A stretch of DNA of 64,000 nucleotides from Planctomycetota bacterium (GCA_016716265.1 JADJWQ010000006.1:2595166-2659165), one strand, 5' to 3'. Positions 41,095 through 45,576 are shown, numbered from the stretch's first letter. Translations and numbers: made by a program. Notes: generated by a model not told the origin, from the sequence alone.

Positions 41095-42165
41095 ATGAAC
41101 GAACTCCTCCGCACCGCCGTCCGCGCGGTGGCCGTGGCACTGGCGTGTGCCGTGGCCGCACCCGCGCAGCGCCCGCAGCCGACGCCCGAAGAGCTGCAGA
41201 AGAAGTACGACGAGGAGCTCGCGCTCCCGTTCGTGCAGAAGGGCAACTGGATCGTCGACTACGACGAGGCCCGCGCCCGCGCCCGGCGGGAGGGCAAGCT
41301 GATCTTCGCCTACTTCTCACGCAGCTACGCCTATTGAGGGCCCTGCAAGGCCCTGGAGAGCCGTGCGCTCTCCGACGATCGCATCACCGCATTCACCGCC
41401 ACCGTCGTGCCGTTCCTGCACGTGACGACGCACATTCCGGGTAGGCCCTACGACGACCTGCTGCGGCAGAAGGGCTTCGGTGGCTTCCCGACGCTCTGCG
41501 TGATGGACGCAGACGGCGAGGTGCTGTACCAGCTGCCCGGAAGCGACCGCTCGATCGAGGGCTTCTACGCCGCGGTCGACCGCACCGAGCGCCTGCTGCG
41601 CGCCCGCAAGGCGGTCGAGACCGGCGAGCCCGGCGCACGCAACAAGCTCCTGCTGCTGTTGCTCGACATGGGACAGGTCGGCTTCGACGACGCGCTCGCG
41701 CAGGCGAAGGAGCTGACGCTCGATCCGGACGAGCAGATCGTCTTCCAGGTGCGCCTCGTCGAGACGCTGCGGCGGTTCCGCGGCGCGGACCTCGACGCGG
41801 CGATCGAGCGCGTCGACTGGCTGCCGGCGCCGCGGGCGCGCGCCGCGGAGATCCGCAGCGACACCCGCCTGATGGAAGACCTCGCCCCGCTGATGGCGCC
41901 GATCCGCGCTGTGCGACCGGGCGAGACGCCGGAGCCGCGGCCGTACGGAATCGCCTACGAGCTGTGGCAGCAGGGTCGCAAGCCGAGCCCGTCGTCGCCG
42001 GTCGAGATGCTGTATTGGGACGCCGTCCGGCGCGCGAGCGTGGAGCGGAAGGACCTCGCGGGGTTCGAGGACGCGGCAGCGGTGCTGCGCAAGCGGTTCG
42101 CCGACAACGCGGCCTACCTCGAAGGGCTGGACAAGGACCTCGCAACGCTCCGCGGCGGGCAATGA
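41095..42165 (+). CDS. secreted thioredoxin-fold protein with in-frame TGA (candidate selenocysteine, U-G-P-C redox motif)
   Basis: Signal peptide MNELLRTAVRAVAVALACAVAAPAQ. ORFs 40450..41337 and 41407..42165 are in the same frame and are separated only by the TGA at 41335..41337. Read-through gives ...KLIFAYFSRSYAY-U-GPCKALE...VVPFLHVTT...GFGGFPTLCVMDADGEVL, a canonical thioredoxin motif with the TGA at the first Cys position. The stop TGA overlaps the ATG of the downstream sigma factor (ATGA). Confidence 0.6.
41337..41373 (+). promoter_or_regulatory. SECIS-like hairpins immediately downstream of the in-frame UGA
   Basis: Hairpin 1, AGGGCC/CUGCAA/GGCCCU, spans 41337..41354. Hairpin 2, GGAGAGC/CGUGC/GCUCUCC, spans 41355..41373. 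Its apical loop lies about 25-30 nt after the UGA and contains GU, which fits the spacing of bacterial SECIS elements. Confidence 0.4.
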
Positions 42166-42737: not shown

Positions 42738-45576
42738 GCACCGCCCGTCCGAGTCGGGAGACCTCACCGAACTCGAAGAGCTGTTCGGCGAGGCGCTGCC
42801 GCTCGACGAGGCGGCCCGCGGCCGGCTGCTCGACGCGCGCTGCGGCGACCGCCCCGCGCTGCGCGCCGAGCTCGAGGAGCTCCTGCGGCACGCTCAGCGC
42901 CCGGCAACGCTGCTCGACGCCGATCCCGGTCGGTTCGTCGCACTCGCGGGCGAGCAGCCCGCCGAGAAGGCGCCGGGCGAGATCGGACCGTACCGGCTGC
43001 TCCGCGAGCTCGGCCGCGGCGGCTTCGGCGTCGTCTGGCTCGCCGAGCAGCGGGAACCGATCGCGCGCCGCGTGGCGCTGAAGGTGCTGCAGCGTGATCT
43101 GTGTCGCCCCGACACGCTGGCGCGCTTCGAGGCCGAGCGGCACCTGCTCGCCCGCCTCGACCATCCTGGCATCGCCCGCATCCACGACGCCGGCGAGACC
43201 GACGACGGTCGCCCGTGGTTCGCGATGGAGCTGGTCGAGGGCCTGCCGATCACGCAGCACTGTGCCGAGCGCCGCCTCGGCCTCGCCGACCGCGTGCGGC
43301 TGGCGGTCGAGATCTGCGACGCAGTCCATCACGCGCACGAGCGCGGCATCGTCCACCGCGACCTGAAGCCGACCAACCTGCTGGTGACCGACGACGGCGC
43401 GCGTGGCCACGTCAAGGTGATCGACTTCGGCATCGCCAAGGCGCTCGCGGACGCGCCGCTGGACACGCTGGCGCGGACCCAGGCCGGACAACTGGTCGGT
43501 ACGCCAGCCTACATGAGTCCGGAGCAGGCCGCCGGCGACATCGCGGCGATCGACGCCCGCACCGACGTGCACGCGCTCGGCGTCGTCCTGTACGAGCTGC
43601 TGACCGGCACGCTGCCGTTCGAAGGCGACCATCCCACTGATCTCCCGGGATTGCAGCGACGCATTCGTGAGGACGATCCGGCGCGTCCGAGCTCACGGAT
43701 CGCACAGCGCTCCGCGACCCCCGAGTTCCGCGCACCGGTGCTCGCTCGCGCGGTGCGCGGCGACCTCGACTGGATCGTCGTCAAGGCGCTCGCGAAAGAG
43801 CCCGCACGCCGCTACGCGACGGCCCGCACGCTCGGCGACGATCTCGAGCGCTTCCTGACCGACCGGCCGGTGCTCGCCAGCCCACCGGGCCTCCGCTACC
43901 GCGCGCGGAAGCTCGTGCGGCGCCACCGCGCGACGGCGATCGGTGCCGGCATCGGGCTCGCGGCATTGATCGCGGGTACCGGATTCGCGATTCACGGCCT
44001 GTTCGCCGCACGGCGCGCCGAGGCACGCGCGGTCGCCGAAGCCGACAAGCTGCGCATCGTCGCCGGCTTCCTGACCGACACCCTGACGAGCGCGAATCCC
44101 GAGCGCGGGCTCGGCCGCGACGTCACCGTGCGCCAGATCCTCGACGACGCGGCGCACCGCCTCATCGACGGCACCCCACCATCGATCGAAGCCGCCGTGC
44201 GTCTCGCGCTCGGCTCCGCGCGTCGCGCGCTGGGGCAGCCGACGGTCGCGGAGACCGAGCTGCGCCGCGCACTGACGCTCGCCGACGCGCAGGACGCACC
44301 GGAGCGCGGTATGGTCCGCCGCGAGCTCGGCCTGCTGTTCACGGATGCGGGTCGCTTCGCGGAGGCCGACGCGCTGCTGACGGAATCGCTCGCCCTCGCG
44401 CGGGCCAGCGGCCAGGAGACACCGGTCGCACAGTCACTGCATGCGCTCGCGATCCTCCGACTCGGTCAAGCCCGGTACGGCGACGCCATCGCCGCACTGA
44501 ACGAGGCCCTGGCGCTGTGCGACCGCCCCGGGGTGCCCGACACGCTCGCGAGCGCCGTCCGGGTGACGCTCGCCGAGGCGCTCGAGCGTACGGAGCGCTA
44601 CGACGACGCCGAGCGGCTGCTGACTCATGAGGTCGAGCGCGCGACCGCGCGCGGTGCGCCGGGGCGCGTGCGCGTGCTCCAGGCCGAGAGCGTGCTGGCC
44701 CTGCTGCTCGTACGGCGCGGGCAGGCGGGCCGCGCATTGCCGCTGGCGCGCGCGTGCGTCGCGCTCTCCCAGGAGGTGCACGGCCCCGACCACCCGGAGA
44801 CCGCCCGCCACGCGTGCAATCTCGCCGAGCTGCTGCAGGAGCTCGATCAGCTCGACGAGGCCGAGCGGGAGTTCCGGCACGGCATCGAAGTGCTACAGCG
44901 CGCGGCACCTGACGGCTCGCCCGCCGAGGCGTCGGCGCGCGGCAACCTGGGTTGGCTCCTGTCGCGCACCGGACGCGACGACGAAGCCGAGACCGAGCTC
45001 CGTGCGTCGCTCGAGACCCAGCGCCGGTTGCTCGGCAACGACAATCCCGGCACCGCGACGGCGCTCAGCGACCTCGCCGCGCTGCTGCGCAGTCGTGGCC
45101 GGTTCGCCGACGCCGAGGCGGCCGGCAACGAGGCGCTGCAGATCTTCGAGCGCGTGTTGGGCGAGCGCCACCGCAGCACGGCGGTCGCCGCACACTCGCT
45201 CGGCGTGACGATCCACGCCGCCGGCGACGCCGCCCGGGCGGCACCGATCCTGGAGCAGGCGCTCGAGCTCGGGCTCGCCACGATGCCCACCGATGGCTGG
45301 GAGCTGGCCGAATTCCGCAAGCGGCTCGCACGCGCGTGGATGGACCTCGGCCGCTTCGACGACGCACGCCAGCAGTTCGAGCTGGCCCACGCCGCGATGC
45401 TCGCGCAGTTCGGACCGGACCACCGCCGCACGATCAGCACCATCAAGGGCGTGATCGACGTCGCGCTCGAGACCGGCGACTGGGACCGCGCTGCCGCGTG
45501 GCGCGCGCGGCTGCCCGAGGCCGAGCGCGGCTACGCGGTCGAAGCGGAGCGCAACCTGCGAGAAGCGCGGCGATAG
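42727..45576 (+). CDS. Ser/Thr protein kinase with TM segment and C-terminal TPR repeats
   Basis: Start overlaps the sigma gene by 11 nt. Kinase motifs GRGGFGVVWLAE, VALK, HRDLKPTNLLV, DFGIAK and AYMSPEQ. TM helix AIGAGIGLAALIAGTGFAI. More than 8 TPR-like units. Confidence 0.85.
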   Translation: MEAEHRPSESGDLTELEELFGEALPLDEAARGRLLDARCGDRPALRAELEELLRHAQRPATLLDADPGRFVALAGEQPAEKAPGEIGPYRLLRELGRGGFGVVWLAEQREPIARRVALKVLQRDLCRPDTLARFEAERHLLARLDHPGIARIHDAGETDDGRPWFAMELVEGLPITQHCAERRLGLADRVRLAVEICDAVHHAHERGIVHRDLKPTNLLVTDDGARGHVKVIDFGIAKALADAPLDTLARTQAGQLVGTPAYMSPEQAAGDIAAIDARTDVHALGVVLYELLTGTLPFEGDHPTDLPGLQRRIREDDPARPSSRIAQRSATPEFRAPVLARAVRGDLDWIVVKALAKEPARRYATARTLGDDLERFLTDRPVLASPPGLRYRARKLVRRHRATAIGAGIGLAALIAGTGFAIHGLFAARRAEARAVAEADKLRIVAGFLTDTLTSANPERGLGRDVTVRQILDDAAHRLIDGTPPSIEAAVRLALGSARRALGQPTVAETELRRALTLADAQDAPERGMVRRELGLLFTDAGRFAEADALLTESLALARASGQETPVAQSLHALAILRLGQARYGDAIAALNEALALCDRPGVPDTLASAVRVTLAEALERTERYDDAERLLTHEVERATARGAPGRVRVLQAESVLALLLVRRGQAGRALPLARACVALSQEVHGPDHPETARHACNLAELLQELDQLDEAEREFRHGIEVLQRAAPDGSPAEASARGNLGWLLSRTGRDDEAETELRASLETQRRLLGNDNPGTATALSDLAALLRSRGRFADAEAAGNEALQIFERVLGERHRSTAVAAHSLGVTIHAAGDAARAAPILEQALELGLATMPTDGWELAEFRKRLARAWMDLGRFDDARQQFELAHAAMLAQFGPDHRRTISTIKGVIDVALETGDWDRAAAWRARLPEAERGYAVEAERNLREARR

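Follow-up and report, generated by a model that had tools for sequence, protein, structure and literature searches.

Sigma factors of the ECF43 group are activated by a kinase through phosphorylation, and both the threonine motif involved and its role have been described (PMC13147305, PMC8999054). In EcfP-PknT of Vibrio parahaemolyticus and EcfK-PknS of Xanthomonas citri, an ECF sigma factor without an anti-sigma factor is encoded beside a transmembrane Ser/Thr kinase. According to the published motif, the acidic DAED patch of such sigma factors is replaced, with a threonine at its third position, and a Ser/Thr or acidic residue is found in the linker between sigma-2 and sigma-4. Planctomycetes also possess several further ECF groups that are linked to kinases (PMC7826278, PMC8999054). 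A different arrangement is that of the redox-responsive SigR-RsrA-thioredoxin system of Streptomyces, in which thiol redox chemistry and thioredoxin genes are both connected with an ECF sigma factor. Sensing is done there by a zinc anti-sigma factor in the cytoplasm, and thioredoxin belongs to the regulon as one of its outputs.

The locus described here lies within a 64-kb window (the whole stretch of DNA that was analysed, from a Planctomycetota MAG) and resembles EcfP and EcfK in the adjacent kinase, the partly replaced patch (here D-A-T-A, with T52) and the linker residue (T108). It differs from them in its planctomycete host, in the TPR ectodomain of its kinase and in the retention of one aspartate of the patch; moreover, the sigma factor gene overlaps an upstream gene for a very probable selenoprotein, which is not described for EcfP or EcfK. 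Compared with the SigR system, it has no anti-sigma factor, a kinase is the presumed regulator and the redox protein is predicted to be exported. On balance, and with some reserve, we favour a reading in which the three genes form an operon whose exported product, decoded with selenocysteine (Sec), would be an accessory of a kinase activating an ECF43-like sigma factor.

Organization of the locus

Direct reading of the sequence identifies three genes on the + strand, A, B and C (41095-42165, 42162-42737 and 42727-45576). Gene A runs from the ATG at 41095 to the TGA at 42163-42165 and is crossed by an in-frame TGA at 41335-41337; gene B extends from the ATG at 42162 to the TGA at 42735-42737, and gene C from the ATG at 42727 to the TAG at 45574-45576. 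Genes A and B therefore share the four nucleotides ATGA (42162-42165), and genes B and C overlap by 11 nt (42727-42737). The initial annotation had reported three co-directional genes joined by an ATGA and an 11-nt overlap, and its coordinates proved exact; Pfam and NCBIfam confirmed the identities of the genes. Overlaps between stop and start codons are common in operons, so that the A/B and B/C overlaps are unremarkable on their own.

The gene upstream, which is GH123-like, ends at about 41016-41018 according to a frameshift analysis, leaving a 76-nt gap before the ATG at 41095; an ATGA at 41095-41098 that seemed to close this upstream ORF was rejected, being produced by a frameshift near 40830. 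Folding of the gap yields a 13-bp GC-rich hairpin (41048..41080, + strand) that has no U-tract and is no more stable than its shuffles (z -0.4); it may act as a terminator or insulator at the 5' boundary of the unit. At the other end, a GC hairpin resembling an intrinsic terminator (45566..45597, + strand) is followed by a T6 run located 16 nt past the kinase stop, the only T6/A6 run in the window. Flanked by these two elements, genes A, B and C are bracketed as one unit. No consensus promoter or terminator was found inside it, a scan that carries little weight at 72% GC. Judged from a shared strand, zero intergenic space and the bracketing terminator-like elements, the three genes have the appearance of a single operon and would be co-transcribed. 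The next gene on the + strand, coding for a lipoprotein-type monohaem cytochrome c with a CADCH motif (45684..46256; Pfam), probably belongs to a separate transcript.

Probable selenocysteine codon of gene A

The TGA at 41335-41337 opens a U-G-P-C redox motif (41335..41346, + strand) if it is read as a Sec codon. NCBI annotates only a 247-aa downstream fragment of gene A, as a hypothetical protein. Alternatively to Sec, the codon might be a genuine stop or a mutation that disables the gene, in which case gene A would be two ORFs or a pseudogene and no selenoprotein; the 64-kb window contains no tRNA gene, tRNA-Sec included, and no Sec-insertion gene is visible in it. Sec use is on record in other Planctomycetes (PMC4807772). 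The comparative evidence makes the true-stop explanation very improbable. In the homologous loci where the motif was found, which come from many lineages, the aligned codon is TGA in 85 of 86 cases, the exception (L031) having TGT, a cysteine codon; one further locus (L002), missed by the motif search, nevertheless has TGA at this column. Among the top 150 representative matches, about 30 are full-length, the remainder being ORFs truncated just past the motif; of the 13 full-length ones inspected, 12 possess a CxxC (CGPC, CPPC, CAPC or CSPC) at this position. Coding conservation is strong on both sides of the UGA, and the frame with high GC at third codon positions continues unbroken across it. 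TGA also serves as the ordinary stop of genes A and B.

A bSECIS-like hairpin with a 7-bp stem and GU in its loop (GGAGAGC-CGUGC-GCUCUCC; 41355..41373, + strand) starts 18 nt past the UGA. Among 80 sequences, 84.5% of the stem cells are paired and 42 cells are changed on both sides, a degree of covariation matched by none of 500 shuffles; in a set of 8 sequences, the changes that compensate each other are at synonymous sites. One subfamily of homologues uses a second register of the hairpin, shifted by 2 nt. With its conserved in-frame UGA, aligned cysteine homologues and a covarying downstream stem-loop, gene A very probably encodes a selenoprotein, in support of the "putative seleno-thioredoxin" of the initial annotation.

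Product of gene A and its family

Gene A (41095..42165, + strand) would encode an exported thioredoxin-fold protein of 356 aa with Sec at residue 81 (U81), composed of a Thioredoxin_7 domain (PF13899; E 2e-7, 31.3 bits against a cut-off of 27, with U read as C) and an all-alpha C-terminal domain. Residues 1-24 (41095..41166, + strand) form a predicted Sec-type signal peptide with a hydropathy peak at residues 4-22 and a cleavage site, judged by eye, between AAPA and Q; equivalent N-termini are found in the homologues. In the AF2 model of one homologue (P0130; pLDDT 92), the redox motif lies at the start of helix 81-88. Searched with Foldseek, this type of fold retrieved DsbH (2ju5), DsbD-gamma (1uc7/2fwg), a cytochrome-c-biogenesis-related domain (3f9u) and AGR2, the best structural matches being DsbH and DsbD-gamma. 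The product of gene A is thus predicted to share with chlamydial DsbH and with DsbD-gamma (PF13899) an export signal, a thioredoxin fold and an xxC-type site opening helix 1. However, it possesses U-G-P-C where these proteins have C-x-x-C, and an additional helical, weakly TPR-like C-terminal domain of about 190 residues. It reaches only 17 bits against the NCBIfam DsbH equivalog (NF043050; cut-off 190) and is therefore no DsbH orthologue.

The family comprises 549 cluster representatives, its genome-resolved matches are all from Planctomycetota, and its members are characterized by the signature F-x-Y-F-[ST]-R-S-Y-x-x-U-[GP]-P-C together with the helical domain. As in known UxxC thioredoxin-fold selenoproteins, Sec replaces the N-terminal cysteine of CxxC, the bSECIS hairpin resides within the coding region and cysteine homologues coexist. 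None of the NCBIfam selenoprotein models matches gene A. An inventory of prokaryotic selenoproteins published in 2026 lists UxxC thioredoxin-fold types, the "Thiol:disulfide interchange protein" (PF13098) and Trx7/PDZ (NF041199), whereas PF13899 is absent from its text and neither the signature with the helical domain nor the association with kinases presented below is described there (PMC13188914). The family is large, mis-annotated and systematically truncated by gene callers.

The sigma factor and the kinase

Gene B (42162..42737, + strand) encodes an ECF sigma factor of 191 aa, matched by Sigma70_ECF (PF07638; 1e-46, 159.6 bits, cut-off 21.1) and TIGR02999 (1e-54, 185 bits, cut-off 126); Sigma70_r4_2 also matches, and both sigma-2 and sigma-4 are present. 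The 191-aa sigma factor in the NCBI record has the identical start. Thr52 (codon 42315..42317, + strand), within T-L-D-A-T-A-L-V-H-E-A-Y, corresponds in sigma-2.2 to the phospho-acceptor threonine of ECF43 factors and is invariant in all 120 aligned sequences, gene B's own product included. The sigma-2.2 motif D-A-T-A has lost E and D at positions 3 and 4 and kept the first aspartate, the ECF43 consensus being Q-T-T-A; residue 108 is a threonine here and D or E in most homologues. Pfam detects no anti-sigma domain in the genes neighbouring gene B, and a Hanks-type kinase is encoded immediately downstream. On its motif and kinase linkage, the gene B product is an STK-associated ECF sigma factor, probably of the ECF43 type, the alternative assignments being ECF59-62, 217, 267 and 283; the sigma-kinase pair is of a known kind. 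Such pairing had been considered characteristic of planctomycetes; it is not specific to them, EcfP being a Vibrio protein and EcfK a Xanthomonas one.

Gene C (42727..45576, + strand) encodes a Hanks-type Ser/Thr kinase of 949 aa (Pkinase, 1e-39, plus nine TPR_12 stretches in Pfam), in which an 85-aa N-terminal extension is followed by the kinase domain (about 89-380), a transmembrane segment (404-426) and a TPR_12/TPR_10 array (about 490-940). A Kyte-Doolittle scan finds a single transmembrane helix (AIGAGIGLAALIAGTGFAIHGLF; 43936..44004, + strand), which would place the TPR domain outside the cytoplasm. The cysteines predicted to be periplasmic (598, 677 and 697) are not conserved in orthologues, so that a simple thiol-disulfide switch acting on this protein is not indicated. 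The window contains a second kinase gene, at 14944-18132.

In each of the six relatives examined, the sigma factor and kinase genes again form an adjacent pair, and in three of them the two overlap (by 8 nt in L009 and L013 and by 4 nt in L011). The gene preceding the pair is a different one in each of the six (cytochrome c, S41 peptidase and unknown genes). Cytochrome c is a recurrent neighbour of orthologous pairs: the one at 45684..46256 is 61% identical to those beside the pair in L009/L010 and L011/L012. In JAXMCA01, the pair and a selenoprotein homologue are about 50 kb apart.

Kinase genes beside the selenoprotein family

The linkage of thioredoxin-like gene, sigma factor and kinase proposed at the outset held only in part. 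The exact order was repeated in none of the 86 selenoprotein loci, and among the loci compared it occurs in this genome only. The trio itself recurs, rearranged as ECF sigma - TPR kinase - selenoprotein, in the loci of the closest selenoprotein homologues (L019 and L021). Furthermore, the C-terminus of a kinase of the same type is encoded directly upstream of the selenoprotein in L003 and L017, and unrelated, co-directional membrane kinases directly adjoin it, with no sigma factor, in L029/L049/L064, L071 and L086; the neighbour in L071 is a TPR+PDZ kinase, and in L064 an FGE-sulfatase kinase lies upstream and an FG-GAP kinase downstream. Overall, kinases occupy 10 of the 95 informative flanks, compared with 9 among about 300 flank genes that are not adjacent (Fisher p 0.005), and the binomial probability of such a count is 2e-6 against an assumed kinase base rate of 1.5%. 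The cases come from at least five deep lineages, which are 25-45% identical to one another.

These neighbourhoods bear on whether the arrangement is fortuitous, a housekeeping gene for an exported selenoprotein having ended up by chance in front of an ordinary ECF43-type sigma-kinase pair, with the ATGA reflecting compaction only. Consistent with such an origin, the gene order is not conserved, the pair has a different upstream neighbour in every relative, and in about 85% of the informative family members no kinase lies alongside (for example in the contexts of L001, L097, L098, L099 and P0124); Planctomycetes are, moreover, rich in kinases and ECF sigma factors, as the second kinase gene in this window (14944-18132) illustrates. 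Chance juxtaposition would, however, have to account for co-directional adjacency to kinases of varied architecture, on either side of the gene, in five deep lineages, and for the return of the complete trio in L019 and L021. We consider it unlikely, and gene context points instead to a likely functional tie between selenoprotein and kinase.

Possible role of the selenoprotein

In the reading that we favour, the UGA at 41335 would be decoded as Sec by means of the hairpin at 41355-41373, giving the U-G-P-C active site. A signal sensed by the gene C kinase would lead to phosphorylation of Thr52, in region 2.2 of the sigma factor, and possibly also of the linker residue Thr108; the negative charge of the phosphothreonine would allow the sigma factor to bind core RNA polymerase and switch on its regulon. 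The selenoprotein would be a co-expressed extracytoplasmic accessory of the kinase, most likely a redox-active partner or modulator of its sensor side and less likely a co-induced repair enzyme. The most conjectural part of this scheme, more so than co-transcription, phosphorylation or topology, is which way the functional link between selenoprotein and kinase runs. The initial annotation had proposed a redox-sensing module in which the kinase replaces a classical anti-sigma factor. Replacement agrees with the ECF43-like sigma factor and with the lack of an anti-sigma gene beside it, whereas redox input is conjecture, the extracytoplasmic cysteines of the kinase being unconserved.

An effector role of the selenoprotein fits equally well as a redox-sensing input. 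Fully developed, this alternative places the selenoprotein on the output side of the pathway, as a disulfide reductase of the periplasm or a peroxide-scavenging selenoenzyme that is co-transcribed from an autoregulated ECF promoter and so induced with each activation of the sigma factor, much as SigR induces trxBA; one possible role would be to keep the neighbouring cytochrome c reduced at its haem-binding cysteines. The sharing of an operon with the sigma factor, here and in L019/L021, is in keeping with such a role, as are the fold neighbours (reductive periplasmic thioredoxin domains and the cytochrome-c-biogenesis-related 3f9u), the recurrence of cytochrome c beside orthologous sigma-kinase pairs and the kinase ectodomain devoid of conserved cysteines. 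Conversely, no cytochrome c is found in the 86 selenoprotein loci, and in L029/L064, L071 and L086 the selenoprotein stands beside kinases with no sigma gene near, which ties it to kinases and not to an ECF regulon. We therefore regard an output role in this full form as rather unlikely, and retain that of an accessory of the kinase.

How such an accessory might act is suggested by the control of IRE1 by PDI-family proteins (AGR2-IRE1beta, PDB 9i3u; PDIA6-IRE1alpha), in which an extracytoplasmic thioredoxin-fold protein binds or modulates a transmembrane Ser/Thr kinase of the single-pass type at its sensor domain. The likeness concerns a possible mode of action only: homology between gene A and AGR2 or PDIA6 is limited to the thioredoxin fold, and an interaction of the gene A product with the kinase is purely conjectural. 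Taken to its furthest, the comparison would make this widespread unrecognised family extracytoplasmic redox co-sensors of single-pass Hanks kinases, a bacterial counterpart of PDI/AGR2-IRE1 that here feeds an ECF43-type sigma factor through threonine phosphorylation and in which selenium may gate the pathway, a generalization that we advance as speculative and doubtful. The start of the sigma factor gene overlaps the stop of the selenoprotein gene, so that expression of sigma factor and kinase could depend on successful Sec decoding 830 nt upstream; if this is true, selenium supply would gate the pathway via translational coupling and polarity.

With the gene A family recognized, many annotations would be corrected, and the selenoproteome known from Planctomycetota would grow. 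The inputs of kinase-regulated ECF sigma factors are poorly understood, and a recurrent periplasmic partner would provide a testable handle on what these kinases sense.

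Gene organisation and boundaries of the unit

Direct reading of the sequence, whose G+C content is about 72%, places the Thioredoxin_7 gene (gene A) from an ATG at 41095 to a TGA at 42163-42165, the ECF sigma factor gene (gene B) from an ATG at 42162 to a TGA at 42735-42737, and the gene for the Hanks-type Ser/Thr kinase with TPR repeats (gene C) from an ATG at 42727 to a TAG at 45574-45576. All three lie on the forward strand, and this reading bears out the co-directional arrangement described in the initial annotation, in which genes A and B share an ATGA and genes B and C overlap by 11 nt. 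The high-GC frame at third codon positions is unbroken throughout gene A and runs straight through an in-frame TGA at 41335.

Upstream lies a GH123-like glycoside hydrolase gene (39233-41098, forward strand) whose reading frame changes near 40830-40840. According to the third-position signal, its true stop is located at about 41016-41018 in another frame, and the shifted frame yields a sensible C-terminus (…EDRECLRALRARDP…AGG) immediately before that stop. The ATGA at 41095, which seems to end this open reading frame, is therefore only apparent, being produced by the frameshift near 40830; the frame change itself means that the gene is a pseudogene or that the assembly contains an indel. The 76-nt gap between the true stop and gene A holds a 13-bp GC hairpin, and a GC hairpin followed by TTTTTT (45592-45597; the sole T6/A6 run in the whole 64-kb window) is found 16 nt past the kinase stop. 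Given these two flanking elements, the three genes look like one bracketed unit. A consensus promoter and terminator scan of positions 40700-46400 was uninformative at 72% GC; the hairpin with its T6 run escaped it and was found by eye.

A probable thioredoxin-like selenoprotein family

When U is read as C, the product of gene A matches Thioredoxin_7 above the Pfam cut-off and carries a predicted N-terminal signal peptide, with the TGA at 41335 yielding the motif ...FAYFSRSYAY-U-GPC.... The comparison at this position covered 80 metagenome loci and six loci from genomes (each a Planctomycetota MAG), together with two database homologues. Among the 86 loci in which the motif search succeeded, the column holds TGA in 85 and TGT in one; a further locus missed by that search (L002) also has TGA in the same column. 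Scanning 1.84 billion representatives in full with HMMER retrieved 549 relatives. Of the top 150, the majority are ORFs starting just 3' of the motif, and thus cut off at the TGA; about 30 are full-length. Of the 13 full-length sequences read, 12 are Cys homologues displaying CGPC, CPPC, CAPC or similar.

Homologues keep a 7-bp hairpin that begins 18 nt past the UGA. Across 80 sequences, 84.5% of its cells are paired and both sides have changed in 42 cells, values reached by none of 500 shuffles; the compensatory changes seen in an eight-sequence set are at synonymous codon positions. The first hairpin directly after the UGA (41338-41354) was rejected as a SECIS element because it is not conserved among homologues. 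An alternative genetic code is ruled out, since TGA is the stop codon of genes A and B. A tRNA scan of the window detected no tRNA genes, and an Rfam search of the whole window gave no family match. Taken together, the TGA column, the Cys homologues and the conserved hairpin argue that gene A very probably encodes a selenoprotein, in agreement with its first description as a putative seleno-thioredoxin.

NCBI annotates only a 247-aa fragment of this gene. In a confident AF2 model of the homologue P0130 (pLDDT 92), a thioredoxin fold is joined to an all-alpha domain; Foldseek neighbours of the former are DsbH, DsbD-gamma, Thioredox_DsbH proteins and AGR2. As gene A matches none of the NCBIfam selenoprotein models and a text search of a 2026 survey of selenoprotein families in prokaryotes (PMC13188914) did not turn up PF13899, the family may be unrecognised or hidden under a generic 'thiol:disulfide interchange' class.

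Another candidate Sec site in the window was rejected: two long ORFs without Pfam matches (585 and 770 codons between stops; 48617-52681, reverse strand) share a frame, with a lone TGA at 50372-50374 between them, but no redox motif occurs at the junction, and they are therefore probably merely adjacent genes.

The sigma factor-kinase pair

The sigma factor matches PF07638 and TIGR02999, and its relatives number over 7,900 at E <= 1e-20. In an alignment of 120 sequences, consisting of the window's sigma factor and its best hits, region 2.2 reads T-L-[QDE]-A-T-A-L-V-H-E-A-Y with an invariant Thr; in the window's protein this is T52 within D-A-T-A. In ECF43 factors this region-2.2 site, demonstrated in the EcfP-PknT and EcfK-PknS systems, stands in place of the acidic DAED patch (PMC8999054, PMC13147305). 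Linker position 108, Asp or Glu in most homologues, is Thr in the window's sigma factor, recalling the second phosphosite of EcfK. We call the sigma factor ECF43-like, a label kept at that level because Planctomycetes possess further kinase-linked ECF groups (PMC7826278).

The kinase consists of an 85-residue N-terminal extension, the kinase domain, one transmembrane helix (404-426) and a large TPR_12/TPR_10 array, which, given this single predicted helix, must be extracytoplasmic. The N-terminal extension (…LFGEALPLDEAARGRLLDARCGDRPALRAELEELL… within residues 1-88; window 42727-42990) contains Cys39, invariant in four aligned orthologues, and may serve to dock the sigma factor. A kinase of this type directly follows the sigma factor in six of six relatives examined, the two genes overlapping in three of them. 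The pair is of a known kind. Elsewhere in the window, a second Hanks kinase (1062 aa; 14944-18132, reverse strand) bears PD40/WD40-like beta-propeller repeats; tblastn found no PF07638-type sigma factor beside it.

About 50 nt before the sigma start, two relatives (L011 and L013) share CTTGT[GC]-N21-GATTCC, and a third (L009) has CTTTAC-N21-GATCCC; such shared elements may constitute a promoter for the pair. In the window, CTTGTC occurs at 41049-41054, preceding the gene for the selenoprotein, but 28 nt separate it from GACGCC.

Beyond the terminator-like element after the kinase, the window encodes a lipoprotein monohaem cytochrome c (CADCH, about 190 aa; 45684-46256, forward strand). Its counterparts in L009 (5387-5953) and L011 (10473-11015) lie beside orthologous pairs; the three are 61% identical and either adjoin the pair or sit one gene off, the position differing between loci. 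This cytochrome may belong to the sigma factor's regulon. As a general partner of the selenoprotein it was dismissed, being absent from all 86 selenoprotein loci. Downstream of the cytochrome gene and on the opposite strand, a radical SAM/SPASM protein and a 440-aa ORF of unknown function lie side by side (47259-48296 and 46279-47601, both reverse strand).

Association of the selenoprotein with kinases

The thioredoxin-sigma-kinase order, whose conservation the initial annotation proposed to check, is not conserved: among the six relatives the gene upstream of the orthologous pair varies (cytochrome c, S41 peptidase or an unknown gene), and in genome JAXMCA01 the pair lies about 50 kb from a selenoprotein homologue. 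It is plausible that the selenoprotein stands next to the pair by chance. Tblastn with the window's sigma factor matched none of the selenoprotein loci, and an HMM of its close homologues gave a weak match in L019 only. The apparent lack of linkage was a false negative, however, as Pfam searches of ORFs upstream of adjacent kinases uncovered a divergent ECF sigma factor, retaining an acidic PEDL motif, in both L019 and L021. In these loci, whose selenoproteins are among the closest homologues of gene A (43% and 40% identity, respectively), the order is ECF sigma, transmembrane TPR kinase, selenoprotein. In L003 and L017 the selenoprotein is directly preceded by the same kinase C-terminus, beyond which, on the upstream side, the contig breaks off.

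Neighbour clustering identified kinases as the most recurrent neighbour family. In further loci no sigma factor is nearby: a TPR+PDZ kinase lies upstream in L071, the selenoprotein of L064 is flanked by an FGE-sulfatase kinase on its upstream side and by an FG-GAP kinase on the other, and kinases lie directly downstream in L029/L049 and L086. Among 80 distinct members, a co-directional kinase occupies the upstream flank in 6 of 45 informative cases and the downstream flank in 4 of 50. Fisher's test of adjacent versus non-adjacent flank genes gives p = 0.005, and the binomial probability is 2e-6 against an assumed base rate of 1.5%. The kinase-adjacent cases span five lineages with mutual identity of only 25-45%. 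Many family members lack such a link, among them L001, L097, L098, L099 and the P0124 context.

Several neighbourhoods have further features. In L071, a second exported thioredoxin-like ORF (6754-7572, forward strand) immediately 3' of the selenoprotein homologue has its own in-frame TGA (…FLFFGCN-U-GPC…), giving tandem selenoprotein genes after the TPR+PDZ kinase. The subfamily with KPIFGYF[ST]RSYSP-U-PPC has a same-strand upstream fusion of a GT2 glycosyltransferase and a Kdo/WaaP-family kinase-like domain (L060 3256-5883, forward strand, and eight other loci). In L098, a DsbA/FrnE-like oxidoreductase (…DIACPWCYVGK…; 987-1328, forward strand) begins 42 nt after the homologue. In L001 (2142-7726), FG-GAP repeat proteins and a 478-aa Sigma70_r2/r4_2-FG-GAP fusion precede it; the kinases adjoining the selenoprotein in L029 and L064 likewise have ectodomains made of FG-GAP domains.

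A possible sensor-side role

The best-supported account is a single operon in which the membrane Hanks kinase would phosphorylate Thr52 and thereby activate an ECF sigma factor lacking an anti-sigma factor, the exported selenoprotein oxidoreductase being co-expressed as a kinase-associated accessory. The redox-sensing module initially proposed is supported in part. That the selenoprotein is instead a co-induced effector is also plausible. We favour a sensor-side role, as a redox-dependent partner of the kinase ectodomain, because the selenoprotein is associated with kinases of varied architecture, whether a sigma factor is present or not; the logic would be comparable to that of AGR2/PDIA6 and the kinase IRE1. 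This preference is weakly held; the Cys residues of the kinase ectodomain, considered as a thiol switch and rejected, are unconserved in orthologues. What is new here is the family of selenoproteins and the recurrence of kinases beside it.
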